Positions 1,842 through 52,571 of a DNA stretch of 64,000 nucleotides are shown here, in pieces (positions within the stretch are counted from its first letter, which is position 1; each line of letters begins with the position of its first letter). Under the pieces are notes generated by a model. The model was not told the origin of the DNA. It searched no databases and saw only the letters and a program-made list of their open reading frames with translations. The stretch is taken from assembly GCA_016218255.1 (NCBI GenBank), contig JACREN010000037.1, positions 1,514 through 65,513 on the forward strand, read 5' to 3'. The translations under genes were made by a program, and so were the position numbers. Origin of the DNA: Candidatus Gottesmanbacteria bacterium (GTDB lineage Bacteria > Patescibacteriota > Microgenomatia > UBA10105 > UBA927).

Positions 1842-3060
1842 AAGACTCCGAATTTTGTTTGCGACATTTTCTCCCTATCGAAACGGAAAGCGCGAATCTA
1901 CCAATGGCAACGTAGAGCCAATGGTGAAGTATTTTGGGCCGCGAGTATCCAATTTTATCCTTTTGGATCAGCCGCATACCGGCAGCGATGAGATAATCCC
2001 GCATGTTGAAGTTTATAAATCGAGAAAACGAAAAAAAGCATATATTTTGAACATGTGGTATCTCCGTCCGCTATATTGGGTATTGGGGCGAATACGAACA
2101 ACTGATGATGATACAAATCTGTTGTTTAAGATACGAGATATTTTGTCTGTTTTAGCGGTGAGAATTCAAGAGGGAGGTTACTTCGATGTATTTATCGGAT
2201 TTGAATCGGTAAACGCTTTGGCAGGAATTATATTGAAAAAAGTTGGTTTGGTAAAAACGGTCGTGTATTATGTGTCAGATTACTCTCCGGTGAGATATCA
2301 AAATTCGATGTTTAATTTTTTTTATGTACTTTTGGACAGAATCTGCTGTTATTGGTCAGATTATATTTGGGATGTATCCAGGGCTATGCATCCCGCGAGA
2401 ATTGAGGCGGGGCTTATTGCAAATAAAAGCGCACCCGTAGTTCATGTACCGAATGGTTTGGAGAAACGATTCATTCGGCATATTTCTGAAAAGCATCGCA
2501 TCCCTCATTCGTTGGTATTTATGGGTACCCTTGGTATTGAGAATGGACCGGATATCGCTGTGGCTTCACTTCCTTTGGTCTTGAAAAAGATTCCAGATGT
2601 TACGCTTCATATTATCGGCAAAGGTGATAAAGATCTTGAACGACTTAAACGCCTGGCCATGCAAGCGAACCTGGAAAATCAAATAATATTTGATGGGTAC
2701 ATTAAAGACACCGATAGAATGTTTGCGACGATTCGTCGGTTTGCATTGGCACTTGCCCCGTACAGAAAAATAAAAAATTCCGTGCGATGGTACGGGGATT
2801 CCCTCAAGCTACGTGCATATACTGCAGCAGGCGTGCCGGTGATTGTGTCGTCTGTGCCTCCGCTAGGCAGAGAACTTGCAGATATCGGCGCGGCCATAGT
2901 TGCAGAGGATTCTGCCGAGGGCTTTGCGCGTGAAATTATCAGAGTATTTAATGACGAAAGAGCTTATAGCGGATTAGTAAAAAGCGCGGTAGAATACGGA
3001 AAACATCAAGCTTGGGAGCGTACGTATTCGCAAGCCATGAAAGAAATGCCTGTGTTATGA
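1822..3060 (+). CDS. glycosyltransferase family 4 (GT-B fold)
   Basis: The C-terminal domain has the GT4-type nucleotide-sugar-binding region (…AYTAAGVPVIVSSVPPLGRE…). Confidence 0.7.
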   Translation: MKKTKNKRLRILFATFSPYRNGKRESTNGNVEPMVKYFGPRVSNFILLDQPHTGSDEIIPHVEVYKSRKRKKAYILNMWYLRPLYWVLGRIRTTDDDTNLLFKIRDILSVLAVRIQEGGYFDVFIGFESVNALAGIILKKVGLVKTVVYYVSDYSPVRYQNSMFNFFYVLLDRICCYWSDYIWDVSRAMHPARIEAGLIANKSAPVVHVPNGLEKRFIRHISEKHRIPHSLVFMGTLGIENGPDIAVASLPLVLKKIPDVTLHIIGKGDKDLERLKRLAMQANLENQIIFDGYIKDTDRMFATIRRFALALAPYRKIKNSVRWYGDSLKLRAYTAAGVPVIVSSVPPLGRELADIGAAIVAEDSAEGFAREIIRVFNDERAYSGLVKSAVEYGKHQAWERTYSQAMKEMPVL

Positions 3061-6000
3061 ACACAATATCAAAGATTTTTTTAGCTGTTGCACTCTTTGC
3101 TGTGGCTTTTTTGCCGTTGACCTGGATCCGTGGTGGAGAAATTCTTTTGGGGTATGATAACGTATTTCCCGTACAGGCAAAAGCATTTCTTTTTGATCGA
3201 CTATTTTCCTGGTCGGAAATTCAGAATTTCGGCATGGATCAGTCGGGTATACAGGGCAGTTTAATCATTCACGCCATTGATGCATTGCCGCAGCTTTTGG
3301 GGGTGCCAGTTGTGTTGGGTCAACGATTTGTATTGATATTTTGGTTTATTTCCATAATTGGTGCGGCGTACGTGTTTGCAATAAAGCTGGAGGCGAGTAA
3401 ATTGATTCGCGTCCCGTACTTTCGGTATTTTTTTCCGCTTCTTTACACAGTTAATTTTTATACTCTTCAGGCGTGGTGGATCGCGGAACGGACGAAATTT
3501 TCCCTCCTAGTGGCAACTCCGCTGATTTTGAGCATATTGCTTCCCTGGCTTAACGAGTCGTTTTCTCTCCGCCGGGTTATTTTGACGGCATTGGCTGCAT
3601 CAGGTATTTTGACATTCTTTAACGGTGGTGGATGGATGGGTTTGTCTCTGTATGGCGGCTTGCTGGTGGCGCTGGGAATTTTTTACGTTCTGAACGTATA
3701 CATTTTGCTGGCGCAGAGAAAATACCGTGATATTTCGTTATTGCACGTCTGGTTTCTGTTGTTTGGCTTATTCTTTATTACCTTTAACGCATATACATTT
3801 CTACCCTTTTTAGCCCGTACGGTAAAAGGCTATCAGACTTTTTTGGCATCTGCGGGAGGGGTAAGTGGAGTGTTAGGCTGGACGTTATATTTGAGCGAAA
3901 ATACCAGCTTTATGCATTTACTGCGTTTGCAAGGGATTCCTGACTGGTACAATAACGGATCATATCACCCGTACGCCAATATTTATTTAGACAGGCCAAT
4001 TTTTGTTATCGGAAGTTTTCTATTTCCTTTATTTGCTCTTATTGGCCTTAAGCGGTATGGGAAGGAATTCGTATCGCTGACAGTATACTTTTTGTTTCTT
4101 GTCGTACTTGGGTTGTTTTTTACCGCGGGTTCCCATCCCCCTCTGGGTTTTATTTTCGAGATTTTGATGCAGAGAATTCCTGGTTTTGTACTATTCCGTT
4201 CACCAATTTATAAATTCGGTTATGTGTACTGGTTTGCGATGAGTTATTTTATAGCACTTGGTCTCTCTGCAATAGTGGCGTTGTTGGTGCAAAATATTAA
4301 AAAGCGATTCAACAATTTTGCCAGTGATTGGTTTGCCGCTGGTCTAACGGTGTTAGTTATGGGCTCAATTCTCGGTTACCATTTCCCGTTTATTACCGGA
4401 GATTTTTTTCGGATGAGCGCTGCATCGTTTTCATCCCGAGTCATAATGCCGTCGCATGTGAGCGATTTTTCTGAATGGTGGGCACATGAAGGCGCTGGCA
4501 AAAGGGTATTGTTGCTACCGAAGCTTAATGATAATTGGTTATTTGAACAATATCGATGGAAATATCTCAGTTTGTATCCGGTTTTAGGAAATTTTGGTAA
4601 TACCGGAATTGTCGAGAATTTGGATAACTTATCGCCTCAAGAGAATCACCTGATCGGTTTATTATACCGTTCGATTGAGAAGCGTCAGTACGACGTCATG
4701 AATATGGTGAGTCATCTGCTGGGAATTCAGTATATGCTTTTGCGGCGCGATTTCTATTATGATTTTCCCGATCAGGAAGCGATACGTCCGGAGTCCATAA
4801 ACGAGATACTCAAAGAAAATGGGCATGTATCGCTAATCAGATCGTTTGGTCCGTGGGATCTTTGGGGGTATTCAGACGCGCGTTCGGTGCTGCAGTCTGT
4901 TGCTGTTTCTGAGGCCGCATTCTCTGACGTCAATCGGGCGATTTCAGTTGGTGATGTTCTCCCGTTTTCATTATATCTAGGGGATGAATCATATGGACTA
5001 TCTACTCACGATTCGGGAAATCAGGTTGATGTTTATGCAACTTGCCTAAGTTGTGTAGCGGAGCGAGAACGGGTATCAGTGCAGTTTCCTGCTGCAAGAG
5101 TATTACCTGATTCACCCCTCTATCCGCTGGTTGAATGGAAAAACAGTATGCTCAGGGTGAAAAAAATAGGTGAGCCGTATCTCTACAGTCTCCTCGGTGA
5201 GGGTCTAAAAAAAACTACGGAGTTAACTGTGTTAATCAATCGTGGGCAGTCCGTATTTCTTCAACAGGTTGCACAGGCTTATGTAGCTATACTTGATGAA
5301 CTCATTACAAAATTTGACAGTGCGATTCTGGAATCACAGAATCCGTATGTGTTGTCAAGCGCGGTGAATGAGTATATCGGAGCTCAGCTCTCTCTGTTGT
5401 CACCTTATCTTTTTTCGACAAAGAAGGAAGATATCCAATCTGTTCAGGAGGTGTTGGGGAAATTGAGTGAGTTGAGAGAAATGGCAATGGGTTATTATAG
5501 CAGTAAAGATTTTGGGAAAAGAAAATTGTTCAGTCCAAATATCAGCAGTCCCGGCATGTATACAGTGGCAATCCGTAACCAAGATGCGCGCCCGAAAGAG
5601 ATACGGGTAGATGGTACAGTCGTCAACTCACCAGTTTATCTAGACGAGGGGAAACACATAGTCGAAGCAGTTTATGCTGAACCGGGTAGTCATCTTACGG
5701 CGTTTCAGTCCGCTGAAATTGCCGGAAATCAATGTTTTGCCTCTGAGACAACGGAATATGATAGAGATTCTCATTACCGTCTGCGATTTGATACGCTTAA
5801 AAATTTGGGAAAGCGGTTTTTCTTTTTTATTGACGTCGGAGATTCTTTCTCTCCTGTTGTATCGTTTCAGATAAGTGATGTAACAAACGAAACCGGAGGA
5901 TTTGACACGGTGTTTTCTTCTGGAGTGTTTAACTCACTCGTGAATGTAAAAAAGTTGCGTTTGGCATTTTGCGCACCGTTATTAACCAAGGAATTATTTG

Positions 6001-6422
6001 ATGAAACAGTAAGGAATTTTTCTTTTATTCGACTTACAGACCCCCTGGTTCGATTGGAGAAAAGCCGGACTGCCTCGTTTACTGATGAAAGGCCTACGGT
6101 GTCATTTCAGAAGAATGATCCTACATCATACTCCGTTACTATTCAGCAGGCGAGCAGCCCATATTTTTTGGTTCTGAATAACCGTTTTGACCGCGGTTGG
6201 AAAGTGCGTATGGCCGGATCAACGGAAGAAGTAGCTGAAGATAATCATGTGCTGGCCAACGGTATCAGTAACGCATGGCTGATAGAGCGGACGGGATCCT
6301 ATCAAATGACCGTTCAGTATGTCCCTCAGCAGTTTTTTTATCGGGGTATATGGATAAGCATACTATCAACGATATCAGGTGTATGTATATTTATTGCGCT
6401 TCGAAAGAGGAAACCCATATGA
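3057..6422 (+). CDS. very large polytopic membrane protein (~1121 aa): ~470-aa multi-helix N-terminal domain plus ~650-aa extracytoplasmic C-terminal domain; function unknown, possibly a GT-C-like transferase or polymerase
   Basis: Many hydrophobic segments followed by a long hydrophilic C-terminus. The start overlaps the upstream stop (ATGA) at 3057. Its N-terminal loop motifs resemble those of the 6786-8351 product. Confidence 0.6.
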   Translation: MNTISKIFLAVALFAVAFLPLTWIRGGEILLGYDNVFPVQAKAFLFDRLFSWSEIQNFGMDQSGIQGSLIIHAIDALPQLLGVPVVLGQRFVLIFWFISIIGAAYVFAIKLEASKLIRVPYFRYFFPLLYTVNFYTLQAWWIAERTKFSLLVATPLILSILLPWLNESFSLRRVILTALAASGILTFFNGGGWMGLSLYGGLLVALGIFYVLNVYILLAQRKYRDISLLHVWFLLFGLFFITFNAYTFLPFLARTVKGYQTFLASAGGVSGVLGWTLYLSENTSFMHLLRLQGIPDWYNNGSYHPYANIYLDRPIFVIGSFLFPLFALIGLKRYGKEFVSLTVYFLFLVVLGLFFTAGSHPPLGFIFEILMQRIPGFVLFRSPIYKFGYVYWFAMSYFIALGLSAIVALLVQNIKKRFNNFASDWFAAGLTVLVMGSILGYHFPFITGDFFRMSAASFSSRVIMPSHVSDFSEWWAHEGAGKRVLLLPKLNDNWLFEQYRWKYLSLYPVLGNFGNTGIVENLDNLSPQENHLIGLLYRSIEKRQYDVMNMVSHLLGIQYMLLRRDFYYDFPDQEAIRPESINEILKENGHVSLIRSFGPWDLWGYSDARSVLQSVAVSEAAFSDVNRAISVGDVLPFSLYLGDESYGLSTHDSGNQVDVYATCLSCVAERERVSVQFPAARVLPDSPLYPLVEWKNSMLRVKKIGEPYLYSLLGEGLKKTTELTVLINRGQSVFLQQVAQAYVAILDELITKFDSAILESQNPYVLSSAVNEYIGAQLSLLSPYLFSTKKEDIQSVQEVLGKLSELREMAMGYYSSKDFGKRKLFSPNISSPGMYTVAIRNQDARPKEIRVDGTVVNSPVYLDEGKHIVEAVYAEPGSHLTAFQSAEIAGNQCFASETTEYDRDSHYRLRFDTLKNLGKRFFFFIDVGDSFSPVVSFQISDVTNETGGFDTVFSSGVFNSLVNVKKLRLAFCAPLLTKELFDETVRNFSFIRLTDPLVRLEKSRTASFTDERPTVSFQKNDPTSYSVTIQQASSPYFLVLNNRFDRGWKVRMAGSTEEVAEDNHVLANGISNAWLIERTGSYQMTVQYVPQQFFYRGIWISILSTISGVCIFIALRKRKPI

Positions 6423-6796
6423 ACATTTTTGTCCGAATATCTCAAAGATTGCTTTTAAGGATCGGGCAGAACGCGCCGAGAATTCTCGTTATGTCGCTGC
6501 TGTTTTCTGTTTTGACATTCGCTTCCATTGCAGTGCCGTATATAAATATTTTTCTTTCCCCAAAAATCATTCTAGCAGTGGTATTTGTGTGCTGGTATAT
6601 GCTTTTTTGCCCTCCTGCCCGATTGCTGGAAAATCTTTCGATCGGAGTAGTATTGTGCGCAATGACCGTCACGGTATTTCGTTTTTGGGAAATCGCTGAG
6701 TGGTTTGGGGAGTTTTTATTTATGCTGCTCTTTCTTATTGCGCTCCGTTATTTAGGCATGTTTATTTCTCGATTGCGGTATTCACATGAAGCGTAG
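6419..6796 (+). CDS. small 4-helix membrane protein (125 aa), hypothetical (a GtrA-like role is speculative)
   Basis: Internal ATG at 6419 overlaps the upstream stop (ATGA). Four hydrophobic helices. It is wedged between the two large membrane-protein genes. Confidence 0.4.
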   Translation: MNIFVRISQRLLLRIGQNAPRILVMSLLFSVLTFASIAVPYINIFLSPKIILAVVFVCWYMLFCPPARLLENLSIGVVLCAMTVTVFRFWEIAEWFGEFLFMLLFLIALRYLGMFISRLRYSHEA

Positions 6797-8351
6797 TTTT
6801 TTCTTTTCGGTTTTATTCATTATCATTGTGTATCGACCGTGGTTTGCTTTCAACCGTGCGCTTTCAGGAGGAGATTGGCCGTATGTATACCGTCAAAGCG
6901 CTGAATCCTTTCCTCTATTGGCCGGGAAAGGGTATCTTTGGTTGGACACCTATTTCAATATTGCTGCAAAATTCGGTATGCAATATTTCGGACTGTCCTG
7001 GGAATTGACAGAAAAGATTTTTTGGTTTTTCCCCTTTTTATTGATAGTTTTAGTAAGCTCCTGGTATTTCTTGAATGAGGTATTTTTGTCAGAGCGTCGA
7101 GATATCCGCGCTGTGTTGTGCGGCATTGGGAGTATAGTATACTCTACTAATTCATACATTCTCATGATCGCTGGTGGTGGGCAAATGGGTGTAGCTATGG
7201 GATATGCACTAGCCCCTGCTGTGATCGGTGCATTACGTCGTCGTTCCTCTGTGGTTTCTGTTGGATTATCCGCTCTACAGTTAATGTTTGATCCGCGTCT
7301 GTTTATAATTACCATTATCGGATATACCGGAATAGAAGTTATTTATTCCTCTGTTGGGCACGGTCAACTGAAGCGATCAGCGACTCTTTTGCTTATCGTG
7401 GTGTTTTTTACTGTGTTGCTTAACGCCTTTTGGATAGTCCCAAATTTTTTTGACTATCGTGGTATGTATGAAGGTGCTACGCAAGGAGATACACTGTCAT
7501 ATTTCAGTTTCGCTACATTTTCTAACAGCCTCGCTCTGCTTCACCCGAATTGGCCCGAAAATATATTCGGTAAAGTGGGATTTATGAGACCGGAATATAT
7601 TTTTGTTGCGGTTGTGGCATATTCAGGGATCGCATTATTGCGGAAGGGGAGACATGGTGCTCTGATCGCAGCTTTCGCGGCAATTGCTTTAGCTGGTGCA
7701 TTTTTGTCAAAAGGGGTACAGGACCCTGCTGGAAGTATATACCGTTTCCTCGCGAAGATCCCGGGGTTTATGGTATTCAGAGACCCGACAAAATTTTATC
7801 TTCTTACCGCCCTTTCCTACTCGGTGCTTATACCATATAGCGTTTCGAACGTTTTTCGAAAAATATGGCCGGTTACTGCTATTCTATTTCTGTTTTTTTG
7901 GAGTGTGTTAAGTTTTCCGGCCCTTCGAGGTGATTTAGGTGGCACATTTGCCCCAAAGTTAGTGCCTGCTTCGTACACACGCCTTTATGATTGGCTAGTG
8001 GCCCGACGTAATGCTTCACATATATTATGGATTCCCAAGCATCAGAGATTTGGCTATGCAACATTGACACAAAAAGCGATAAGTAGTCAGGATGAAATAG
8101 CAGATGTGTCTCCGAACGAATTTGCCGATATTCTAAATAGCGCAGAAGGGAAGAAAATGATCACAGAAAGGGGCATCGGATTATTTATTATACCCGCAGA
8201 TTCAGAGAAAGAGATTTTTTTGACAGACCGTTCATATGACGATGCGAAGCGTAAAGCGTGGATATCTGCGATCGATACGGTGAATTGGGTAGAGAAAATA
8301 ACTATTCCCGGTGTCGCGGATTCGATTACGGTTTATAACGTGGTATACTAA
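6786..8351 (+). CDS. polytopic membrane protein (521 aa), likely a paralog of the N-terminal domain of the 3057-6422 product
   Basis: At least 10 hydrophobic helices. The first loop (SGGDW…KFGMQYFG) resembles GGE…NFGMDQSG in the upstream giant protein. Confidence 0.6.
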   Translation: MKRSFFFSVLFIIIVYRPWFAFNRALSGGDWPYVYRQSAESFPLLAGKGYLWLDTYFNIAAKFGMQYFGLSWELTEKIFWFFPFLLIVLVSSWYFLNEVFLSERRDIRAVLCGIGSIVYSTNSYILMIAGGGQMGVAMGYALAPAVIGALRRRSSVVSVGLSALQLMFDPRLFIITIIGYTGIEVIYSSVGHGQLKRSATLLLIVVFFTVLLNAFWIVPNFFDYRGMYEGATQGDTLSYFSFATFSNSLALLHPNWPENIFGKVGFMRPEYIFVAVVAYSGIALLRKGRHGALIAAFAAIALAGAFLSKGVQDPAGSIYRFLAKIPGFMVFRDPTKFYLLTALSYSVLIPYSVSNVFRKIWPVTAILFLFFWSVLSFPALRGDLGGTFAPKLVPASYTRLYDWLVARRNASHILWIPKHQRFGYATLTQKAISSQDEIADVSPNEFADILNSAEGKKMITERGIGLFIIPADSEKEIFLTDRSYDDAKRKAWISAIDTVNWVEKITIPGVADSITVYNVVY

Positions 8352-16600: not shown

Positions 16601-16793
16601 CTGGGTGTTTCCGGTTGGAATGCCTGATGCGGTTTGGCTAATTTATCGTAATCCAAATATTCGGGTATTTTCCTGGGCTACTCTCCCCGAAGCATTTTCC
16701 GTAATTGATGCAGGTGTGAAAACACAAAGGGTTTTTGAATTTGACGCCAGCGGTAAAGTAGTTGAGCGCATAAAGCCACCTGATATTCAATGA
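13617..16793 (+). CDS. fusion membrane protein: N-terminal O-antigen ligase/polymerase-like (Wzy_C-type) domain plus C-terminal GT-C-like (PMT/ArnT-type) polytopic domain
   Basis: The N-terminal half has the Wzy_C periplasmic-loop signature (ILVGSGYGSVGLAVDNSYLRMLAEVGSLG). The C-terminal half opens with a DD motif in its first loop (NNFVGDDFTW) and at least 10 helices. An alternative start lies at 13587. Confidence 0.65.
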   Translation: MKKLLHWSKQNFFLLSAIVCSVFIPLYPKLPLVDIKNTWVYIRIEDFLVVGVLFLLVIAVMRRQISLKTPLTMPILLFWIAGGIATMHGILLVFPSLQAVYPNVAFLSFLRRMEYMSLFFVGYFALKEKRHLAALVVVLVGTVLAVSLYGIGQKYLGFPAFLTMNEEYAKGIPIRLSQLSRISSTFSGHYDLAAYLVLVLPVFVSLLFGYTKYWQRAVLILGVLLGFIALFMTVSRISFFALLLALGFVVFLHKRKLILLTLPVTVIFVLLFVSISPRVFDRFGNTVKAIDVVIDAKTGDPIGHTKTVPNTYFMTKIIKQQYARTIKNIYGFASPSASFVVPYLVLPEQVVLLAEPDAPTGEDLPQGTGYINLSLAPVIRKLDNFFYEPKPRTATTAAEVFIINGDFLLKKVFTYDLSFTTRFQGEWPRAMAAFTRNILVGSGYGSVGLAVDNSYLRMLAEVGSLGFVFFTGIFVALGMYIKKIWPDIDSEQSKSFIIGVMAGLAGIGVNALFIDVFEASKVAFMTWLLIGMALGLAASYQRKAFNMLKEFKRILISMPSIAVFIFLLIMLLYSPLMRNNFVGDDFTWFRWVADCGEQNISGSCPVNISTVVRFFTHSDGFFYRPGTKIYFLVMYTVFWLNQNAYHAVSLALHGLVALLVFILANKLMKQSFMAAAAGLLFLFLSGYSEAVHWISATGFLFSAVFILVSLLSFINWVEKKKMRYGIFSIGAIFFALSFHEVGVVTPFVVLAYRSIFLRGYPLSKMLVDRVSAFVFFPLPLYFLVRFAAGSHWLSGDYNYNVLRLPFNVVGNAFGYFLLTVFGSVTSPLYQLIRGGLRTHIGIAAVVILCILLLAIWTIRNKYHIVQQQDRSLIGFGLIFSFLTLLPFLGLGNISSRYSYVASVGVAFTLVIFMKYVYILLRENGTAIAKAGTVVIISVYMLFQIIQQQQITADWYQAGEKTRRFIVSMGSAYEDSWAIAPVELHFVNVPIRHGEAWVFPVGMPDAVWLIYRNPNIRVFSWATLPEAFSVIDAGVKTQRVFEFDASGKVVERIKPPDIQ

Positions 16794-18226
16794 AAAATCT
16801 AACTCCATTCGCTATAGCGATTGTTATCATGGTTGCTGTCGCGGCTCGTTTCTATCATATAACTGGTTCTGTGGCAGATTGGCACAGCTGGAGACAGGTT
16901 GATACCGCGGCAGTTGCTAGGAATTTTGTAAAGTTCGGTTTTGACCCGTTTCGTCCGAGATTTGATGACTTGTCTAATATTCCTTCGGGAAAAGATAATC
17001 CATCGGGATGGCGCATGGTTGAGTTTCCCTTGTATCAGTCTATGGCATACGGAATATGGCGACTTGCCCCAGGTGTTCCGATGGAAATTATGCTTAGACT
17101 GGTGACGGTTGGCGCTTCCGTGGGTACACTTATAATTCTTTATGTTCTTATGGCAGCAACGGCGGGAAAGCTTGCCGCCTTCTTTGGCGCGTTTTGTTAT
17201 GCGGTATTGCCCTACAGTATCTATTACGGACGAGTAATCCTCCCTGACCCACTTATGGTTTTTTGGGCGGTGTTAAGTGTCTATTTGGTTTTTTTGGCGA
17301 CGGAAAAAAAGAGAGATTGGGGATTCATGTTATGTGCGGGCATTGCTGGAGCGTTTGCCTTGCTTGCTAAGCCTATGGGATTGTTTTTATTATTGCCGAT
17401 TCCCTATCTAATGCTTCGGAGGAACGGTTTTTCTATATATTCATTCATCCGTATGTTAGTTTATTCGCTTATTTGTTTGTTTCCCTTGTTTTGGTGGCGA
17501 CAATGGATTTTACAATATCCCGAAGGAATTGCAGTCTATGGTTGGCTTTTTAACGAGGGGAATATTCGTTTTAAGGGTGCATGGTTTTATTGGTTATTTG
17601 CGAAGCGCGTTGGAGAGCTTATATTGGGATATTGGGGTCTTATTCCTTTCGGAATCGGCATGCTTCTCGTATCATCAAAAAAAGAAGGGTGGTTGTTTCG
17701 TTTGTGGGTGATTGGTGGACTCCTCTATTTTATTGTGATTGCGCGAGGAAACGTGCAGCATGATTATTATCAGATTCTTCTTATCCCCATTATCTGTGTG
17801 TATCTCGGCAAAGGATTCGCTTTTCTTTTTTCCAATGCGGTCTTTTCGAAAGCTGTCAGTTACCAGCTGTCAGCGATTAGTTTTTTGTTATTATTTTCTT
17901 TTTCCTGGTATACCGCGAGAACCTATTATTGGATTAACCGGCCTGAAATCGTTGAAGCCGGAAAAGCTGCAGACAGCCTGTTGCCGGCCGGCGCGAAGGT
18001 AATTGCTTCATATAACGGGGATACCTCATTTCTTTATCAGACTAACCGTCAGGGTTGGCCCTTGGGTTTTGAGATAGATAAAAAAATAGAAGCCGGCGCA
18101 ACTCATTATGTTACGGTGTCTCCAACAGATAACGACGGGGAGACAATGGCCTTGGCCAGTAGATTTACTGTTCTCGTTCGAAACGAACGATACGCGATCA
18201 TCGATTTAACGAAGCCGAAGCGGTAA
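16790..18226 (+). CDS. GT-C fold glycosyltransferase (ArnT/PMT-like, COG1807-type)
   Basis: Polytopic protein. The first loop carries HSWRQVDTAAVARNF. A C-terminal soluble region is present. ATGA overlap with the upstream gene. Confidence 0.65.
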   Translation: MKNLTPFAIAIVIMVAVAARFYHITGSVADWHSWRQVDTAAVARNFVKFGFDPFRPRFDDLSNIPSGKDNPSGWRMVEFPLYQSMAYGIWRLAPGVPMEIMLRLVTVGASVGTLIILYVLMAATAGKLAAFFGAFCYAVLPYSIYYGRVILPDPLMVFWAVLSVYLVFLATEKKRDWGFMLCAGIAGAFALLAKPMGLFLLLPIPYLMLRRNGFSIYSFIRMLVYSLICLFPLFWWRQWILQYPEGIAVYGWLFNEGNIRFKGAWFYWLFAKRVGELILGYWGLIPFGIGMLLVSSKKEGWLFRLWVIGGLLYFIVIARGNVQHDYYQILLIPIICVYLGKGFAFLFSNAVFSKAVSYQLSAISFLLLFSFSWYTARTYYWINRPEIVEAGKAADSLLPAGAKVIASYNGDTSFLYQTNRQGWPLGFEIDKKIEAGATHYVTVSPTDNDGETMALASRFTVLVRNERYAIIDLTKPKR

Positions 18227-23536: not shown

Positions 23537-24175
23537 ATGATTTATACCTTCCTAAAGAGATGCATTGATTTGATCGGCGGTCTTTTCCTTATGATTTTTT
23601 TTGGTCCCATATGCATATTGACCGCAATTGCCATCGCTCTTGATACACCGGGTCCAGTCTTGGCGGATACCCCTCCCAGAGTTGGTAAAAACGGTAAATT
23701 TTTTAAGTTGTATAAATTCCGGTCGATGGTTGTTCATGCGCATGAAAAATTGCGGAATGATCCTCGACTGGCGAAGTTGTATAGTGAATATAAACGAAAT
23801 AGTTACAAACTTCGAGAAGATCCCCGCGTTACGACAGTGGGGCGTTTTATACGGAAGCATTCGCTCGACGAAATACCACAACTGATAAACGTTTTGAAAG
23901 GTGATATGAGTTTAGTCGGACCCCGGCCGTATTATCCCGACGAGCTTGTTGATCAACAAAAGAAATATCCGCACACAAAAGAACTGGTGAAGATTGTACT
24001 TTCGGCTAAGCCGGGCATCACCGGGATGTGGCAGGTGTCCGGAAGAAGTGAAGTGAATTTTGATAAACGGATTAAGATGGATGCAGATTATGTACGTCAG
24101 CGTTCCCTAATTCTGGACATTTTTGTACTCCTGAAAAGTCCGTGGGCGATGATTTCCGGCAAGGGAGCGGTATAA
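23537..24175 (+). CDS. polyprenyl-phosphate sugar-phosphate transferase (bacterial sugar transferase family, initiating enzyme)
   Basis: N-terminal transmembrane segment. KFRSM and [12 protein letters not shown]…[13 protein letters not shown] motifs. Confidence 0.85.
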
Positions 24176-30236: not shown

Positions 30237-31913
30237 ATGTTTCGCATGTGGCTGATTTTTTCATTATTCGCACTTCTCTTTTGTTTTATTTCCTTACGAT
30301 TATTTTATTGGCAAGTGATAGCGGGAGATCGGTTGAAAGCGCGTGCAGCATCTCAATATAGTGCTGAATTTATACTACCAGCGTCTCGTGGGAAAATACT
30401 TGCTTCTGACTCGAGTCCACTAGTGATTAATCAGCCTGCCTTTTTAGCGTACGCGGAACCTAAAAAAATAAAGAATATTTCTCATTTCCTTTCCTCAGTT
30501 CACACTGTTCTGGGAGCAAATGAAACTGATATAGATGGTTTGTTGGCTGATGAGGAGCGATCATGGGTGCTTCTTGCGCATAAAGTAGAGCTTCCTGTGG
30601 TTGAAAAACTGAAAGCGCTTGGTTTGTCAGGTTTAGGTTTTGAAAAAGAGCCAAAGCGGTATTATCCCGAAGCGTCGATGGCAGCCCATGTATTGGGGTT
30701 TGTCGGATCTGATGAGAATGGACGAGATAAAGGGTATTTCGGATTAGAAGGATATTACGATCGGGATCTCCGCGGAAAAGACGGAGTGGTTGAGTTGGAA
30801 AAAGACGCGAGAGGTATGCCGATTCTTATAGGTGAAGCCAAAAGGATTGAAGCTGAAGACGGGAGAACCCTTGTGCTGTGGGTGGACAAGAGTATCCAAA
30901 ATATATTGGAAAATCGGTTATCAGAAGGAATACGGAAGTACGGTGCACAGGAAGGATCAGTAGTCATTATGGATCCACAGACTGGGGGTATTTTGGGAAT
31001 GGTCAGTTTTCCTTCATACCATCCGCAAAATTTTCTGTCCTATGAAAAAACACTGTACAAAAATCCAATTGTAGCTTCATCGTATGAGCCGGGTTCTACG
31101 TTTAAAGCACTCGTTATGAGTGCAGGCATACAAGAAAAGGTGATATCACCAACAACGACCATGGAAGAAATAGGGCCTCTGAATGTCAATGAATATGCCA
31201 TCCGAACATGGAACAACGAATATCACGGAACGATAAATATGACAAAAGTGTTGGAGCGGTCATCGAATGTAGGCATGGTCTTTGTTGCACAAAAATTGGG
31301 CAAAGAGAGCTTGCTTCGTTATATCCGGGATTTTGGATTTGGTCAGCCGACCGGTATCGATGTGGAAGAGGAAAGCTCTCCAGCACTTCGGGACAGGAAA
31401 AATTGGACTGAGATAGACTACGCGACTGCCTCATTTGGGCAAGGCATCGCGGTGACTCCGATTCAAATGGTTCGGGCAGTTGGTGCACTTGCCAACGGCG
31501 GTTGGATCATGGAGCCGCACATAGTTAAGGAAATTATTGAATCTCGCGGTAGGGTGCTCAGGATAAAGCCAAAAAAAATCCGTCAGGTTATTAGTCCGGC
31601 CACGTCAAGAATTGTAACGGAAATGATGGTAGCGGCTGTGGATAACGGTGAAGCCAAATGGGCGAAGCCATCCGGCTACCGAATAGCCGGGAAAACAGGC
31701 ACGGCACAGATCCCAGTAGCAGGGCATTATGATGAAAAGAAAACAATTGCCTCATTTGTTGGTTTTGCACCGGCCGATAATCCAAAATTTGTTATGCTGG
31801 TCACGCTTCGGGAGCCAACAAGTTCGCCGTGGGGGTCGGAAACCGCGGCTCCGCTATTTTTTACGATTGCCAGAGACCTTTTTCGGTATTTTGGCATCAC
31901 ACCGGGCCAATAA
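30237..31913 (+). CDS. ftsI: peptidoglycan D,D-transpeptidase FtsI (class B PBP)
   Basis: N-terminal transmembrane segment. Active-site STFK (SYEPGSTFK). Transpeptidase domain. Confidence 0.85.
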   Translation: MFRMWLIFSLFALLFCFISLRLFYWQVIAGDRLKARAASQYSAEFILPASRGKILASDSSPLVINQPAFLAYAEPKKIKNISHFLSSVHTVLGANETDIDGLLADEERSWVLLAHKVELPVVEKLKALGLSGLGFEKEPKRYYPEASMAAHVLGFVGSDENGRDKGYFGLEGYYDRDLRGKDGVVELEKDARGMPILIGEAKRIEAEDGRTLVLWVDKSIQNILENRLSEGIRKYGAQEGSVVIMDPQTGGILGMVSFPSYHPQNFLSYEKTLYKNPIVASSYEPGSTFKALVMSAGIQEKVISPTTTMEEIGPLNVNEYAIRTWNNEYHGTINMTKVLERSSNVGMVFVAQKLGKESLLRYIRDFGFGQPTGIDVEEESSPALRDRKNWTEIDYATASFGQGIAVTPIQMVRAVGALANGGWIMEPHIVKEIIESRGRVLRIKPKKIRQVISPATSRIVTEMMVAAVDNGEAKWAKPSGYRIAGKTGTAQIPVAGHYDEKKTIASFVGFAPADNPKFVMLVTLREPTSSPWGSETAAPLFFTIARDLFRYFGITPGQ

Positions 31914-31929
31914 ATGCTATAATAATTAC

Positions 31930-33111
31930 ATGCTTCGGAGCCTCAAGTGGCTTTATCATCTTCTTGTTGCCATATGTGCCGCATTGTGGTTTCGTATGCC
32001 GGCCAGAAAGCTTATAGTCGTTGGTGTCACGGGTACTGACGGAAAAACGACTACGACAAGTCTCATTTATGAAATCTTGAAGCTTTCGGGATACAAAGTT
32101 TCAATGATCACCTCAGTGAATGCGGTAATCGCAGGAGTCCCATACGATACTGGTTTTCATGTGACAACACCAACGGCATGGTGGGTGCAGAAGTATCTCC
32201 GAGAGGCAGTTAATCATGGCGATACTCATATGGTTCTTGAAGTGACTTCCCACGGACTTGCTCAAAATAGAGTATTTGGCATATCGTTTGCTGTCGGAGT
32301 TTTGACTAATATTACCCATGAGCATTTAGATTGGCACCGATCGTTTGATGATTACGTAAAAACGAAGTTGATGCTTCTTAAGAGTGCAAGTGCGGCAGTT
32401 CTTAATCGCGATGACGCAGTGATTTATGCCAAGGCGGTTGAACGTCTTCGAAATAAGAAATTGGTGTTATACGCGATACGGAGAGATGCTCTAATTACGC
32501 CAAAAACATATCCGTTTATTACGAAGCTGCCGGGGGAATTTAACCGGTATAATTGCTTGGCTGCATTGGCGGCAACGTATGCTTTAGGAGTTCCCAAGAA
32601 AAAAGCGCTCTCTGCAATTGCGCGTTTTCGCGGTGTGCCGGGAAGAATGGAGGTTATAGTTCGTAAACCATATGTAGTTATTGTCGATTTTGCCCATACA
32701 CCAAATGCACTTATTCAGGCGCTCAGAACCGTTCGGAAATTAGCCAAGAAGCGTCTTATCCATGTATTTGGGAGTGCCGGACTGCGAGATCACAGTAAGC
32801 GCCCACTTATGGGAAAAGCATCCAGTTCGTATGCCGATATAATTGTTCTTACGGAAGAGGACTATCGGACAGAGGATGTAAATATTATTATGGACGAATT
32901 GACAGCAGGGATTGAATCCGGAAAAGAGGTTCACCGTATCGTGAACCGTCAAGAGGCGATTGTATATGCTATGAAGATAGCGCGTCCTGGAGATGTGATT
33001 ATGATAACAGGAAAGGGGCACGAGAAGAGTTTATGCCGAGGTACGACAGAATATCCCTGGAGTGACCAGGAGGAAGTCAGAAAAAATTTACAGCTGCTCG
33101 TAAACACATGA
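31930..33111 (+). CDS. murE: Mur ligase, MurE-like (UDP-MurNAc-L-Ala-D-Glu:diamino acid ligase) lacking the usual N-terminal domain
   Basis: P-loop GVTGTDGKTTTTS lies only ~30 aa from the start, preceded by a hydrophobic segment (LKWLYHLLVAICAALWF). Central and C-terminal Mur ligase domains are present. A longer upstream ORF would overlap ftsI by 185 nt and is rejected. Confidence 0.8.
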   Translation: MLRSLKWLYHLLVAICAALWFRMPARKLIVVGVTGTDGKTTTTSLIYEILKLSGYKVSMITSVNAVIAGVPYDTGFHVTTPTAWWVQKYLREAVNHGDTHMVLEVTSHGLAQNRVFGISFAVGVLTNITHEHLDWHRSFDDYVKTKLMLLKSASAAVLNRDDAVIYAKAVERLRNKKLVLYAIRRDALITPKTYPFITKLPGEFNRYNCLAALAATYALGVPKKKALSAIARFRGVPGRMEVIVRKPYVVIVDFAHTPNALIQALRTVRKLAKKRLIHVFGSAGLRDHSKRPLMGKASSSYADIIVLTEEDYRTEDVNIIMDELTAGIESGKEVHRIVNRQEAIVYAMKIARPGDVIMITGKGHEKSLCRGTTEYPWSDQEEVRKNLQLLVNT

Positions 33112-33854
33112 CGCAAATAAATTATCCGTACTATACATCAAAACTGCTCTCTTCTGTGCCGGGCTTAATACATGGATTTTCTACGAAAAGAATGGGCGAC
33201 ATGAGAAACCGAAAGGCGAGAAAATTATTTCTTTCGCAGTTGTCTGTTCGCGATATATTTCTTTCTATGGCCGAACAGGTGCATGGTACATCAATCACCA
33301 TTCTTGAAAGTTTAGATGTTGTGACTGATACTAAGGCTGTCGGATCTGACGGTATCGTGTCGAAAGCAATCATGAAAAATGATACCCACCATGTATTAGG
33401 TGTGCGCGTGGCGGATTGTGTGCCAATAATAGCCGTGGATCCAGAAGCCAGAGTTATTGGTGTGGCTCATGCTGGATGGAAGGGCACCATTGGGGGGATA
33501 TCGGGAACGTTACTCAAGTCTATGAAGAAGGTTGGCGCAAAGATGGATCGAGTTTTAGTTTGGGTTGGTCCTCACATCGAGAAATGTTGCTATAGCGTTT
33601 CTTATGATAGAGCATTGAGATTTGTGCAGGCGTTTCATGGAAATCCAACTATTGCATCAAAAATTGGGGCTACCTGGCATGTGGATATCGGCAATGCAAA
33701 TGTGATCCAGTTAACGAATATGGGTGTTCGACCGGATAATATCGACATGCTTTCCGCGTGCACCCGTTGTCAGGCTGATGACTTTTTTTCATATAGAAGA
33801 GATTCAAAGAATTCCTTTGGGGAAATGCTTGGAGTTGTTGGATTCCGTGAATAA
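33108..33854 (+). CDS. pgeF: purine nucleoside phosphorylase/laccase-domain protein YfiH (PgeF family)
   Basis: VADCVPII…GVAHAGWKGT is the DUF152/PgeF signature. Confidence 0.8.
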   Translation: MTQINYPYYTSKLLSSVPGLIHGFSTKRMGDMRNRKARKLFLSQLSVRDIFLSMAEQVHGTSITILESLDVVTDTKAVGSDGIVSKAIMKNDTHHVLGVRVADCVPIIAVDPEARVIGVAHAGWKGTIGGISGTLLKSMKKVGAKMDRVLVWVGPHIEKCCYSVSYDRALRFVQAFHGNPTIASKIGATWHVDIGNANVIQLTNMGVRPDNIDMLSACTRCQADDFFSYRRDSKNSFGEMLGVVGFRE

Positions 33855-33859
33855 GGCAT

Positions 33860-35281
33860 ATGAATATTGATTGGGAAGAAATACATTCAATTCATTTTGT
33901 TGGTTTGAAGGGCGTGGCTATGACTGCGCTTGCTGTGTGGGCAAAAGAGGCTGGTTTCCGGGTTAGCGGTTCTGATGTGGATGATATTTTCCCCACGGAT
34001 GAAATATTAGCCGATGCGAATATCCGCGCGCACGTGGGTTTTGACTCTCAAACACTAAAGAAAAAGCGTCCGGACCTCGTGATTTATACCGGAGCGCATG
34101 GAGGTCAGGATAATGATGAGGTGAGAGAGGCAAAATCATTAGGAATTCGCATTATGTCTCATGGGCAAGCATTGGGAGAGGTGATGAGGAGAAAGCGACA
34201 GATATCGGTTGCGGGAAGCCATGGAAAAACGACGACAACGGCAATGATTGCGACTATTTTGTGCTCTGCTGGTAAAGATCCATCCTATGCCATCGGGTGC
34301 GGTAAAATTTTTGGCTTGGGTCTGCCCGGAAGAAGCGGCTACGGCGATTGGTTCCTCGCTGAGGCAGACGAATATGTTACTGATCCTCATCACGACATGA
34401 CACCGAGATTCCTGTGGCAAAATCCGGAAATACTTGTAGTGACGAATATAGATTTTGACCATCCGGACGCATATTCATCGTTGGGCGAAATTCAGCAGGC
34501 CTTCGTAAAGCTGGCTTCGCAGCAACAGGGAAGACGAGTAACCATTGTGAATGCAGATGATGAAGCAAGTGCGGTACTTTTGGGCGATGGTTTGAATGAT
34601 ATCACCACATACGGTCTTTCTCCGCGCGCAGGGTTACGCGTCTTACATGTTGGATTTGGTGAAAGGAGGACTTTTTTTACATTGTCGGAAAATGGTGTTC
34701 CTGTCGGAGAATTCACTATAAAGGTTCCGGGTCTTCATAATGTGGTAAATGCCGCTGCGGCAGCTGCTGCAGCTCGGTCTGTTGGTGTGCGTTGGGATGA
34801 TATAAAGGCGGGATTATTATTATTCGGAGGAACGAAGCGGAGGTTCGAAGAGATTGGCAAAATTCACGGTTGTACGGTATATGATGATTATGCCCATCAT
34901 CCTAAAGAAATACAGGCCACATTGGCAGCTGCGCGTGCGTGGTATCCAAAGCAAAGAATCATAACGGTTTTTCAACCACATACATATTCGCGCACGAAGG
35001 CATTGCTTGCTTACTTTGGAGTGAGTTTTGATAAGTCCGATATTGTCGTAATTGCGGATATCTACGCATCAGCGCGGGAACATGACACGCTTGGTATAAC
35101 CAGCGGAGATCTGGCGTCTGAGATACGGAAGCGGCAGGTCAATGTTCATCAATTGCACTCATATGATTCTGTTTCAGCATTCCTGTTGAGAGAAGGTCGT
35201 GATGGGGATATTATGATTTTTATGGGGGCCGGAGATATAGCCGGATGGGGACAACAATTTGTCTCGGAGATGACGCAATAA
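33860..35281 (+). CDS. murC: UDP-N-acetylmuramate--L-alanine ligase
   Basis: N-terminal Rossmann domain. P-loop AGSHGKTTTTAM. Mur ligase C-terminal domain. Confidence 0.85.
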   Translation: MNIDWEEIHSIHFVGLKGVAMTALAVWAKEAGFRVSGSDVDDIFPTDEILADANIRAHVGFDSQTLKKKRPDLVIYTGAHGGQDNDEVREAKSLGIRIMSHGQALGEVMRRKRQISVAGSHGKTTTTAMIATILCSAGKDPSYAIGCGKIFGLGLPGRSGYGDWFLAEADEYVTDPHHDMTPRFLWQNPEILVVTNIDFDHPDAYSSLGEIQQAFVKLASQQQGRRVTIVNADDEASAVLLGDGLNDITTYGLSPRAGLRVLHVGFGERRTFFTLSENGVPVGEFTIKVPGLHNVVNAAAAAAAARSVGVRWDDIKAGLLLFGGTKRRFEEIGKIHGCTVYDDYAHHPKEIQATLAAARAWYPKQRIITVFQPHTYSRTKALLAYFGVSFDKSDIVVIADIYASAREHDTLGITSGDLASEIRKRQVNVHQLHSYDSVSAFLLREGRDGDIMIFMGAGDIAGWGQQFVSEMTQ

Positions 35282-35286
35282 TCAGT

Positions 35287-36270
35287 ATGAAATCTACTAT
35301 AGAAGAGCTAAAAGAAGTGTTGGGCGACCGTCTACACATAAATGTACCTTTGGCTCCTTATACCACTCTAAAGATTGGCGGCTTAGCAGACGCATGGTGC
35401 GAGGTGCATTCTGTGGATGATTTGGTTGAGGTTGCTACAGCAGCTCGAATACGGAATATACCTGTAACTTTATTGGGTGGCGGGTCAAATGTGCTTATCA
35501 GCGATAAGGGCATTCGTGGACTGGTAATAAAAAACAATACTGAATCAATTTCTATGAGAGGGGCCAGGGGGAAGCTCAGCGCTGGGAAATCAGAGCGGCT
35601 CGTCTATGTGGAGGCTGATAGCGGCGTAGTGATGAATAAACTTGTCCGGTTTACCTGTGATGAAGGATTGGCTGGGCTAGAGATGCATCTGGGACTTCCT
35701 GGAACCGTAGGGGGGGCTTTATATATGAATTCTAAATGGATGCGTCCCGAAGGTTATGTTGGGGATGTCGTATATCAGGCAGAAATATTAGACGAAAAGA
35801 ATATCCGACGGATAGTACCAAATTCGTATTTTCAATTCGGATATGACTATAGCAGTATTCAGAAAACTCACGATATCGTTCTTCGTGTTGTGTTTGTGTT
35901 AGCGCAAAGTGATGTTAAGCATCTGTGGCAAATTGCGAACGCCAGTATTGCATATAGGAGACAAACGCAGCCTCAGGGGGTGCGAAGTCCAGGCTGTACA
36001 TTTCGAAATATATCTGCTGCTCAGGCGTTAATTTCGTCGTTGCCAGAAGGTAGTACATCGGCGGGTTTTTTGCTAGATCATGCCGGGGTAAAGAAATATT
36101 GCGTCCGCGACGCGGAAATATCAAATGTTCATGCAAATTTTATTGTCAATAAAGGAAAAGCTACTGCAGATGATGTGGTACAATTAATAAATAGAGCAAA
36201 AGAACAGGTTAAACGGCAATTCGGAGTGACTCTTGAGGAAGAAATTGTACGATTGGGAGAATTTTCATGA
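35287..36270 (+). CDS. murB: UDP-N-acetylenolpyruvoylglucosamine reductase
   Basis: FAD-binding TTLKIGGLADAW…LLGGGSNVL. MurB C-terminal domain. Confidence 0.85.
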   Translation: MKSTIEELKEVLGDRLHINVPLAPYTTLKIGGLADAWCEVHSVDDLVEVATAARIRNIPVTLLGGGSNVLISDKGIRGLVIKNNTESISMRGARGKLSAGKSERLVYVEADSGVVMNKLVRFTCDEGLAGLEMHLGLPGTVGGALYMNSKWMRPEGYVGDVVYQAEILDEKNIRRIVPNSYFQFGYDYSSIQKTHDIVLRVVFVLAQSDVKHLWQIANASIAYRRQTQPQGVRSPGCTFRNISAAQALISSLPEGSTSAGFLLDHAGVKKYCVRDAEISNVHANFIVNKGKATADDVVQLINRAKEQVKRQFGVTLEEEIVRLGEFS

Positions 36271-38911: not shown

Positions 38912-39634
38912 ATGAAGCGGCAGTCTATAATTATTCTTCATGGTTGGGGTTTGTCAGGCGAAAGGTTTTTGCCGTTAGCTGAAGAACTTCGGGCACGAGG
39001 TTATACGGCTTATGTGCCAGACATGCCGGGTTTTGGTGCGAGCAGTGTTCCCAAAAATTCCCTCACATTGGCTGATTATGCGAATTTTCTTAATATATTT
39101 ATACAGAAACATGATATCCGTAATCCTGTATTGATTGGCCATTCTTTTGGCGGAAGAGTGTCGATCAAATATAACATGATGTATCCAAAAATTGTTCGAG
39201 CACTTATTTTAACCGGAACGCCGGGATTTACCCCTGTAAACAGGAAAAAATTACTGTTATTTATTTTTTTGGCAAAAGTTGGTGGAGCTTTTTGGTCTTT
39301 ACCGCCATTTTGTTTGTTTAGAGAATTTGTTCAGAAATGGTATTACTACGCAGTCGGTGCAAGAGATTTTTATCGCGCGGAGGGCTCAATGAGACAAACG
39401 TTTAAAAATATTGTTCAAGAAGATTTGGAATTGGCGATGAAGTCTGTGAAAATTCCTTGTCTTCTGCTGTGGGGTGGGCAGGATACGATAGTGCCGATTT
39501 CAATTGCGCATAAAATGGCAGCTATCATGGGGACGAGTACTTTAATAACCATTCCCGATTTTGGTCATAACGTGCCATATAGAAATTCCGCCAGGTTTGC
39601 TCATCTCGTGGCGCAATTTATTCATCGCATATGA
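38912..39634 (+). CDS. alpha/beta-fold hydrolase
   Basis: HGWG…GHSFGG nucleophile elbow with a C-terminal His. Confidence 0.7.
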   Translation: MKRQSIIILHGWGLSGERFLPLAEELRARGYTAYVPDMPGFGASSVPKNSLTLADYANFLNIFIQKHDIRNPVLIGHSFGGRVSIKYNMMYPKIVRALILTGTPGFTPVNRKKLLLFIFLAKVGGAFWSLPPFCLFREFVQKWYYYAVGARDFYRAEGSMRQTFKNIVQEDLELAMKSVKIPCLLLWGGQDTIVPISIAHKMAAIMGTSTLITIPDFGHNVPYRNSARFAHLVAQFIHRI

Positions 39635-43195: not shown

Positions 43196-43196
43196 T

Positions 43197-44213: not shown

Positions 44214-44228
44214 TCGCTTGCTTTTGGT

Positions 44229-44257
44229 TTGAGTTTTGATGGCTAAGCAGCTATACT
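44229..44257 (+). promoter_or_regulatory. sigma70-like promoter upstream of dgkA (TTGAGT-17-TATACT)
   Basis: -35 at 44229-44234, -10 at 44252-44257. ATG at 44270 implies a ~6-nt leader. Confidence 0.45.
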
Positions 44258-44269
44258 GACATCACGGAT

Positions 44270-44650: not shown

Positions 44651-44654
44651 CATT

Positions 44655-45701: not shown

Positions 45702-45706
45702 TCGAT

Positions 45707-51164: not shown

Positions 51165-51165
51165 T

Positions 51166-52473: not shown

Positions 52474-52523
52474 AAATTTTTGAAACACGAAGTGTTTGCT
52501 TCGCAAAAGCAAGAAATTTTTAG
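52474..52523 (+). promoter_or_regulatory. structured ftsA-ftsZ spacer (two adjacent hairpins flanked by palindromic AAAAATTTTT blocks)
   Basis: AAACAC-gaa-GTGTTT at 52483-52497. GCTT-cgcaa-AAGC at 52498-52510. AAAAATTTTT at 52472-52481 and AAATTTTT at 52514-52521. Confidence 0.3.
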
Positions 52524-52571
52524 GGTGAACCCATAGTTTTTCTTCGGACTGCCCCCGAATGTTCAAATAGT

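Follow-up and report, generated by a model that had tools for sequence, protein, structure and literature searches.

The described proteins that most resemble those reported here are AftD, the arabinofuranosyltransferase D of Mycobacteriales, a cell-wall glycosyltransferase (GT) of the GT-C fold that adds arabinofuranose to arabinan, and its short paralog MmpA, which is essential in Mycobacterium tuberculosis. AftD has been solved from Mycobacterium abscessus (6W98, 6WBX and 6WBY) and is represented in Pfam by PF11847 (GT-C_AftD). Its essential residues are K39, D41, E251, K361 and D474, with E251 and D474/E475 named by its authors as the likeliest catalytic ones, and it carries three carbohydrate-binding modules and a C-terminal region of five helices that binds acyl carrier protein (ACP) (bioRxiv 10.1101/2019.12.22.885152). 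MmpA (NCgl2761 of Corynebacterium glutamicum, Rv0226c of M. tuberculosis) is encoded in the conserved aftD locus of Mycobacteriales and shares homology with AftD over the N-terminal 668 residues of the latter; its loss blocks the acetylation and export of trehalose corynomycolate (PMC8698533). The same logic as proposed below, in which a lipid-linked donor serves the modification of an extracellular glycan, is found in the GtrA/GtrB/GtrC-type and ArnC/E/F/T systems and in the three-component pentofuranose system of GT136 (PMC11127046). Here we describe three consecutive genes, G1, G2 and G3, in a stretch of 64,000 nucleotides (nt) from a Candidatus Gottesmanbacteria genome (assembly GCA_016218255.1, contig JACREN010000037.1, positions 1,514 to 65,513), hereafter the window. 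G1 and G3 encode large polytopic membrane proteins that are very probably AftD-like GT-C paralogs, and G2 encodes a small membrane protein between them (Table 1).

The assignment of G1 comes from its family and from its predicted structure. Scanned directly against Pfam and NCBIfam, neither G1 nor G2 found a match, and single-sequence searches of G1 and of G3 against the Protein Data Bank (PDB) returned nothing useful. G1 has 96 full-length homologs, nearly all from the candidate phyla radiation (CPR), and the family alignments of G1 and G3 (A1 and A2) contain 53 homologs each, with A5 as a 42-sequence subset. Searched against the PDB with hmmsearch, the G1 family profile had M. abscessus AftD as its sole meaningful match (E 1.5e-5), in three colinear pieces that comprise the first outer loop, the first outward domain and the terminal beta-sandwich with its helix. 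When the G1 family was aligned by hhalign to the N-terminal module of P0098, an actinobacterial AftD-like protein that itself matches 6W98 at E 1.6e-40, the alignment extended over 551 columns with a probability of 98.7% and E 1.5e-16. The AlphaFold 2 (AF2) model of G1 (pLDDT 88.8, pTM 0.85) has the three AftD entries at the top of its Foldseek matches (E 5e-18 for 6w98_A to 3e-16, probability 1.0), followed by PglB and ALG12.

The Pfam profile PF11847 (formerly DUF3367; 661 positions, gathering threshold 26 bits) is passed by the G1 homologs P0002, which is 50% identical to G1 (26.6 bits), P0005 (31.7 bits) and P0040 (42.2 bits), with matches just above the threshold that cover profile positions 24–544. 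Precomputed PF11847 matches are present on about half of the listed G1 homologs, and NCBI gives a few of them the name 'alpha-(1->3)-arabinofuranosyltransferase family'. Since these homologs pass while G1 itself is unmatched, membership of PF11847 applies to the G1 clade as a whole and not to G1 scored by itself.

The AF2 model of G3 (pLDDT 90.3, pTM 0.90) also retrieves AftD first in Foldseek (E 1.3e-7), followed by STT3/AglB/PglB, DPY19, AftA and ALG12/9. All Foldseek matches of either model at probability 1.0 are GT-C enzymes, and the features of the GT-C fold listed by the AftD authors can be seen in the DSSP strings of both: juxtamembrane helices in the first outer loop, a broken third helix and an extracytoplasmic alpha/beta domain. 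Because the G3 family profile did not reach AftD when searched against the PDB, the link between G3 and AftD rests on the fold and on the link to G1. Aligned by hhalign to P0098, the G3 family gave E 1.2e-4, a far weaker value than that of the G1 family. A preliminary description of this DNA, made from the sequence alone, had called the family unknown while pointing to GT-C enzymes of the Emb/Aft type. The latter hunch was right, AftD being the best solved match of G1 and G3 by fold and of G1 by profile, and the family can now be named: G1 falls in the AftD/DUF3367 superfamily, which includes a characterised member, and G3 is a short AftD-like protein that resembles MmpA.

By profile comparison, G1 and G3 are true paralogs, well beyond chance. 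An hhalign comparison of the two families gave a probability of 99.8% and E 4.4e-29 over 525 columns, and the hidden Markov model (HMM) of either family picks up the other protein. Pairwise BLASTP found a single local match (E 2e-5, 25% identity over 134 aa) around IPGF..FR.P..KF. Because the profile alignment joins residues 3–521 of G3 to residues 7–611 of G1, G3 is a full-length paralog of the N-terminal 610 residues of G1. In distant loci, G3 homologs of 657–690 aa carry about 100 extra C-terminal residues matching the last beta-sandwich and the anchor helix of G1; G3 is G1 minus its central ~420 residues, and in this clade the terminal beta-sandwich/anchor module has been lost as well. Close relatives of G3 are equally short, so an artefact of truncation can be discounted.

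The preliminary description had already proposed this paralogy, based on similar loop motifs (GGE…NFGMDQSG in G1 and GGD…KFGMQYFG in G3). The similarity of the first region stands in another register, in which the invariant D34 of G1 (GYD) pairs with the invariant D30 of G3 (GGD), while GGE at residues 26–28 of G1 is not conserved. This aligned pair also provides the conserved acidic residue in extracytoplasmic loops that the description had proposed looking for. The second pairing does not hold: NFGMDQSG (residues 57–64 of G1) pairs with residues 49–56 of G3, KFGMQYFG lies at residues 62–69, and FGM is not kept in the G3 family, where the consensus is AKIGV. In these alignments the FGM resemblance is a coincidence; the proposed paralogy was thus right, although one of the two motif matches cited for it was accidental, as the FGM segments do not align with each other.

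G3 also matches the NCBIfam model of MmpA (NF053599), with 39.3 bits and E 3e-10 against a cutoff of 210 bits and only over residues 272–421, a segment of ~150 residues that encloses the FRDPTKF motif. Matches to this model, all below the cutoff, were obtained for 50 of the 53 G3-family members, compared with 4 of the 42 members of the G1 family; PF11847 matched one of the 53 G3-family members, at E 0.009. This reciprocal pattern of MmpA, PF11847 and hhalign matches suggests a correspondence of G1 with AftD and of G3 with MmpA. Like MmpA, which is a short paralog of the AftD N-terminal module encoded near an aftD-type gene, G3 is a short polytopic homolog of the N-terminal part of AftD and lies one small gene past the aftD-type G1. 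It differs from MmpA in the low score and the short segment matched, and the MmpA phenotype concerns trehalose mycolates. Neither mycolates nor trehalose lipids are known to be made by CPR bacteria. The large G3 family comprises 1454 cluster representatives (50% identity) at E<=1e-30 and has no Pfam model.

By hydropathy, G1 has about 11 membrane segments and a further one at its C-terminus, G2 has four, and G3 is polytopic over its N-terminal two-thirds. The hydrophilic domain of ~650 aa that the preliminary description had placed at the C-terminus of G1 does exist, but it is enclosed by the 11-helix module on one side and a last transmembrane helix (residues 1090–1117) on the other. In the model it comprises an alpha/beta domain, a helical bundle and a beta-sandwich region. 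Within the alpha/beta domain, which also aligns with the C-terminal domain of G3, positions 452–586 of the G1 profile align to residues 439–569 of AftD. The helical bundle gave only helical-bundle noise matches against the PDB, and PF18915 (DUF5667) matches the homologs P0052 and P0088 at this place. The beta-sandwich region, which judging from the strand pattern of the model probably consists of two domains, has weak Foldseek matches to glycosidase beta-sandwich domains. Positions 1044–1117 of the G1 profile align to residues 1198–1272 of AftD, and the last sandwich is conserved with both AftD and the long G3 homologs. The outward part of G1 additionally contains an invariant CxxC pair, C663/C666 (window positions 5043..5054), present in all 42 sequences of A5, which may form a disulfide or bind a metal.

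Residue equivalences with AftD were established through the alignment chain from G1 to P0098 to 6W98, in which the chain index equals the numbering of the AftD paper plus 3. K386 of G1 aligns with the essential K361 of AftD, and W275 aligns with its fully conserved W272. D34 of G1 lies at most two residues from the D37-T-K39-L-D41 motif of AftD, and D30 of G3 aligns with the Asp of ADTK in P0098; an exact equation of the first-loop Asp with D41 was dropped, since the three alignments differ by 2–4 residues in register. The complete set of residues essential in AftD proper was not found in G1, in which the K361 equivalent and the nearby Asp are kept. Further invariant loop motifs are LRLQGIPDW in G1 and HPNWPEN and MFDPR in G3. 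The invariance of D34/D30 and of the FR-x-P-x-KF motif are signs of what may be an active enzyme in both families, although we consider the case for and against catalysis by G3 itself to be evenly balanced.

Taken as a whole, the likeness of G1 to AftD extends to the 11-helix GT-C module, an outward alpha/beta domain with further domains behind it, a terminal beta-sandwich and a membrane helix. It includes the first-loop motif (FG.DQS, compared with FGQAQNQ), the equivalents of W272 and K361 and an Asp in the first outer loop. The differences are also considerable: identity in the structural alignment is ~11%, G1 has the helical bundle and beta-sandwich domains instead of three carbohydrate-binding modules, and it has a single C-terminal helix, whereas AftD has the five-helix ACP-binding region. 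Pfam matches to F5/8-C and CBM_AftD, which are present in P0098, were absent from G1, and the host is a CPR bacterium without known arabinan.

The G1-G2-G3 arrangement is a conserved module in Microgenomates, a group of the ultra-small CPR bacteria (Patescibacteria). A survey of one genome per species yielded 79 loci, 66 of them assessable. The three genes are adjacent in 33 of these 66, while G1 and G2 only are present in 13, G3 lies further off in six, and neither G2 nor G3 accompanies G1 in four. In the remaining 10, G1 and G3 are present and G2 was undetected with an HMM that is weak (5 sequences). All informatively named loci belong to Microgenomates-group lineages, namely Levy-, Gottesman-, Roizman-, Woese-, Davies-, Shapiro-, Blackburn- and Dojkabacteria. 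Many clearly CPR contigs among the survey loci L006–L084 are titled 'uncultured Gammaproteobacteria', and one, CAZCCG010000002.1, is Candidatus Saccharimonadales in nr; because CPR contigs carry Gammaproteobacteria titles, the taxon labels of these assemblies are unreliable.

In the window, ATGA overlaps join G1 both to the GT4 gene upstream and to G2, and G2 and G3 overlap by 11 nt. A GAGG lies 8 nt 5' of the ATG of G2, and the counts of promoter-like and terminator-like sites within the block are not above those of shuffles. NCBI calls on the same contig have equal lengths for the identical proteins P0001 (G1), P0220 (G2) and P0099 (G3). The gene structure given in the preliminary description, with proteins of 1121 and 521 aa separated by a four-helix protein and chained by overlapping start and stop codons, agrees with our coordinates and lengths and with the NCBI calls. 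Its view of the genes as a unit is likewise upheld by the overlaps and by the gene order of distant relatives, both of which are kept in L001 and L003–L005 at 26–38% G1 identity. The stoichiometric membrane complex that it had proposed is plausible, considering the translational coupling and the fact that G2 always follows a G1-type gene.

Homologs of G2 were found between both large genes in L001 and L003–L005, and in 50 of the 66 assessable genome loci. The search for G2 homologs retrieved 16 relatives, none of them annotated. The family has LPY after helix 1 and the invariant residues P40, E94 and G97, with E94..G97 located between helices 3 and 4. Given four Lys/Arg residues at the N-terminus, the positive-inside rule predicts both conserved motifs on the outer face. 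As the conserved residues are predicted to face outward, G2 is most likely an accessory subunit of G1, although any specific role for it must be regarded as tentative. Its identification as GtrA, SMR/ArnE-ArnF (Multi_Drug_Res, EamA) or MATE was rejected, as the 16 members gave no model match at E<=10 beyond scattered noise. In tandem arrays, G2 comes after each G1-type gene, as in G1-G2-G1-G2-G3 (L049 and L054) and G1-G2-G1 (L045 and L057). In these tandem loci, the duplicated unit joins the small gene to the long GT-C gene and not to the short one.

Beyond the fold, homology, paralogy and conserved gene order that are observed, we infer catalytic activity, donor type, acceptor and the physical complex in the following way. 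The three genes probably constitute an envelope-glycan module of two extracytoplasmic GT-C glycosyltransferases with lipid-linked donors and a small partner. The cytoplasmic enzymes of the locus (the phosphoglycosyl transferase, the GT4 and GT2 enzymes and the nucleotide-sugar enzymes) would make a lipid-linked precursor. At the outer face of the cytoplasmic membrane, G1 and G3 would then each pass a sugar from a polyprenyl-phosphate-linked donor to the growing extracellular wall glycan. These steps are taken from GT-C enzymes generally, for which outer-face transfer of lipid-phosphate-linked sugars is established. In G1, the 11-helix module and the outward alpha/beta domain would together form the active site, and the beta-sandwich domains, which by analogy with the binding modules of AftD are probably glycan-binding, would hold the polymer. 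G3 might supply a second specificity, the two paralogs probably making different linkages or working sequentially. G2 would be the accessory subunit of G1 or, less likely, would flip the lipid-linked donor across the membrane. The module would resemble the multi-component systems mentioned above in combining a GT-C protein that has a carbohydrate-binding C-terminal domain with a small or dedicated membrane partner in a glycan locus. It differs from them in that two coupled GT-C paralogs are present instead of one, and in that no recognisable donor synthase or known flippase family is encoded beside G1-G3.

A number of observations weigh against such an envelope-glycan module. G1 alone did not match PF11847 even at E<=10, and E251 and D474/E475 of AftD are not matched by any conserved acidic residue in the alignments of the G1 family: E251 falls within an insertion relative to G1, and D474 aligns with L506, in the consensus Y.WGY.SL.PL, where the loop register is uncertain. 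Either the active site departs from a simple AftD-like pattern, or those loop alignments are wrong. Compared with Pfam, the 16 members of the G2 family showed no similarity to any known flippase or subunit. Among the window open reading frames (ORFs) scanned, no membrane-anchored GtrB/DPM1-type and no UbiA-type polyprenyl-phosphate-sugar synthase was recognised and no Wzx or ABC exporter was found; UbiA-type and DprE-type genes of the decaprenyl-phospho-arabinose (DPA) pathway were likewise absent among them. Furthermore, MmpA, the sole characterised short paralog, has a lipid-transport phenotype without demonstrated transferase activity (PMC8698533).

This last point leads to a different explanation, in which G3, and possibly G1, would be a non-catalytic scaffold or lipid-handling factor with a GT-C fold, as has been proposed for MmpA in trehalose-mycolate export. 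The only curated model that G3 resembles is that of MmpA, AftD, too, plays a non-enzymatic part as a partner of TmaT (bioRxiv 10.64898/2026.07.31.741767), and the G3 of the window lacks the terminal beta-sandwich and anchor kept by its longer homologs. We nevertheless consider a scaffold unlikely, given that the G3 family has 32 invariant columns and that its invariant residues D30/W31, R171, P254-N255-W256, N259 and R332-D333-K336 are placed by the model in outward loops, a pattern expected of an active site. That CPR bacteria are not known as producers of mycolates or trehalose lipids also argues against it. In addition, a 2026 preprint suggests from Foldseek results that MmpA may itself be a glycosyltransferase (bioRxiv 10.64898/2026.07.31.741767).

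It is less probable still that G1, G3 or both work like a polymerase, ligase or oligosaccharyltransferase and transfer a whole lipid-diphosphate-linked oligosaccharide to a wall polymer or a surface protein, instead of single sugars taken from a monophosphate carrier. STT3, AglB and PglB are the next-best folds of G3 after AftD, and the phosphoglycosyl transferase of the locus makes a diphosphate-linked primer, while a monophosphate-sugar synthase was not recognised. However, for G1 as for G3 these oligosaccharyltransferases are second-tier matches, much weaker than AftD, and the WWDxG-type motif is missing, with no W[WY]D in either protein. AftD, which is closest both in sequence and in fold, is believed to draw its donor sugar from the single-sugar monophosphate carrier DPA (bioRxiv 10.1101/2019.12.22.885152), and a separate ligase- or polymerase-like giant protein is already encoded in the locus. 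Finally, the polytopic architecture and the name 'DMT family transporter', given by NCBI to the identical G1 protein P0001, could indicate a transporter, and the preliminary description had offered YfhO, DUF2723 and Wzy as candidate families. Such assignments are highly improbable: no EamA/DMT, YfhO, DUF2723 or Wzy model of Pfam matches (G1 at E<=10, G3 at E<=1), and the transporter folds in Foldseek are low-probability noise (at most 0.12, TM ~0.1), compared with 1.0 for AftD and other GT-C proteins. As there is no DMT/EamA signal and both fold and profile are those of an AftD-like GT-C enzyme, we regard the NCBI name as a misannotation.

The enzyme kind itself is known, and some relatives already carry an AftD-family label at NCBI. 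What appears to be undescribed is the CPR-wide three-gene module, the distinct ectodomain of G1, the G2 and G3 families, for which no models exist, and the parallel with the AftD/MmpA pair. Within the literature library that was searched, no paper dealt with AftD-like or DUF3367 proteins of Patescibacteria. The three gene families are common in CPR metagenomes and have so far been almost without annotation, G2 belonging to no family at all; the data supply a fold and a probable activity for them. Enzymes of the AftD type, hitherto considered only in connection with Actinobacteria and their arabinan, have a conserved Microgenomates counterpart beside the cell-wall cluster, which points to a conserved but undescribed envelope glycan in bacteria not yet grown alone. 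Moreover, the long/short pairing mirrors AftD/MmpA and offers a comparative approach to what MmpA does. A more speculative idea, to which we give only a modest chance, is that the pair of a long AftD-type and a short MmpA-type protein is an ancient two-enzyme module, predating Actinobacteria or exchanged beyond them, that builds an undescribed CPR wall glycan. If so, MmpA would ancestrally be a glycosyltransferase working with AftD and not a dedicated trehalose-lipid delivery factor, and G2 would be a new kind of GT-C accessory subunit or a lipid-sugar flippase.

Table 1. Features of the G1-G2-G3 module and of its surroundings (positions in the window)
Feature	Position	Strand	Remarks
G1	3057..6422	+	Long AftD-like GT-C glycosyltransferase, 1121 aa; ATG 3057, stop 6420-6422
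G1 membrane module, aa 1-445	3057..4391	+	11 helices (model DSSP, hydropathy; hhalign to P0098 N-terminal module)
G1 D34, first extracytoplasmic loop	3156..3158	+	Candidate catalytic/metal-binding Asp; invariant in 53 and 42 sequences
G1 motif FRSPIYKF, aa 380-387	4194..4217	+	Shared with G3; F380, R381, K386, F387 invariant; core of BLASTP match
G1 extracytoplasmic alpha/beta domain of GT-C super-domain, ~446-685	4392..5111	+	Mixed helix/strand in model
G1 extracytoplasmic helical bundle, ~686-815	5112..5501	+	Long helices 689-813 in model; absent from AftD
G1 beta-sandwich region, ~816-1089	5502..6323	+	All-beta in model
G1 C-terminal membrane anchor helix, aa 1090-1117	6324..6407	+	Model helix; hydropathy segment 1097-1115
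G2	6419..6796	+	Small membrane protein, 125 aa, four hydrophobic segments; predicted N-in
G3	6786..8351	+	Short AftD-like / MmpA-like GT-C paralog, 521 aa
G3 D30, first outer loop, GDWPY	6873..6875	+	D30 and W31 invariant in 53; aligns with G1 D34
G3 motif FRDPTKF, aa 331-337	7776..7796	+	Counterpart of G1 FRSPIYKF; R332, D333, K336 invariant
Stand-alone GT4 N-terminal-domain protein, 192 aa	10461..11039	+	Directly before complete GT4
Complete GT4, 387 aa	11014..12177	+	
Giant membrane ORF, 1068 aa	13587..16793	+	~20 hydrophobic segments; no Pfam match; weak O-antigen-ligase-like NCBIfam matches, aa 57-294
PMT-like GT-C gene	16790..18226	+	Overlaps giant ORF by 4 nt
Phosphoglycosyl transferase	23537..24175	+	Gene end overlapped by DUF4012 gene
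DUF4012 protein, 684 aa	24142..26196	+	One membrane helix; closes glycan locus just before recO
mur/fts cluster	30237..53726	+	FtsI-type penicillin-binding protein, Mur ligases, MurB, MurA, GlmU-like, MraY, FtsW, MurG, FtsA
DegT aminotransferase	41091..42308	+	Unusual mur/fts insert
PD-(D/E)XK nuclease-family protein	42305..43195	+	Unusual mur/fts insert
FemAB-family protein	42915..44213	+	Unusual mur/fts insert
462-aa ORF	45668..47056	+	Unusual mur/fts insert; no Pfam match; between MraY and Mur ligase
DUF2079 polytopic membrane protein	53745..55193	+	E 7e-44; just past division genes

The genes of the window are tightly packed on one strand, and its GC skew is positive throughout. Around the triad are genes encoding a nucleotide-sugar dehydrogenase, two epimerase/dehydratases of the short-chain dehydrogenase/reductase type (one of them GalE-like), a nucleotidyl transferase, several GT4 and GT2 enzymes and a hexapeptide acetyltransferase, together with the phosphoglycosyl transferase, the DUF4012 protein, the ligase-like giant membrane protein and the PMT-like GT-C protein listed in Table 1. 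This glycan locus lies upstream of the mur/fts cluster, which comes at 30-53 kb and contains several unusual inserts. The split GT4 pair, in which a protein of 177-196 aa is followed by one of 374-386 aa, is also present in L001, L003, L004 and L005, and is therefore a conserved arrangement and not a frameshift. A gene for a protein of 1009-1072 aa occupies the position of the giant ORF, after a GT2 gene, in L001, L003 and L004. The giant protein was ruled out as a further paralog of G1 and G3, as BLASTP was blank and neither family HMM matched it at E<=1. Just past the division genes, the DUF2079 protein may be another envelope glycan enzyme.

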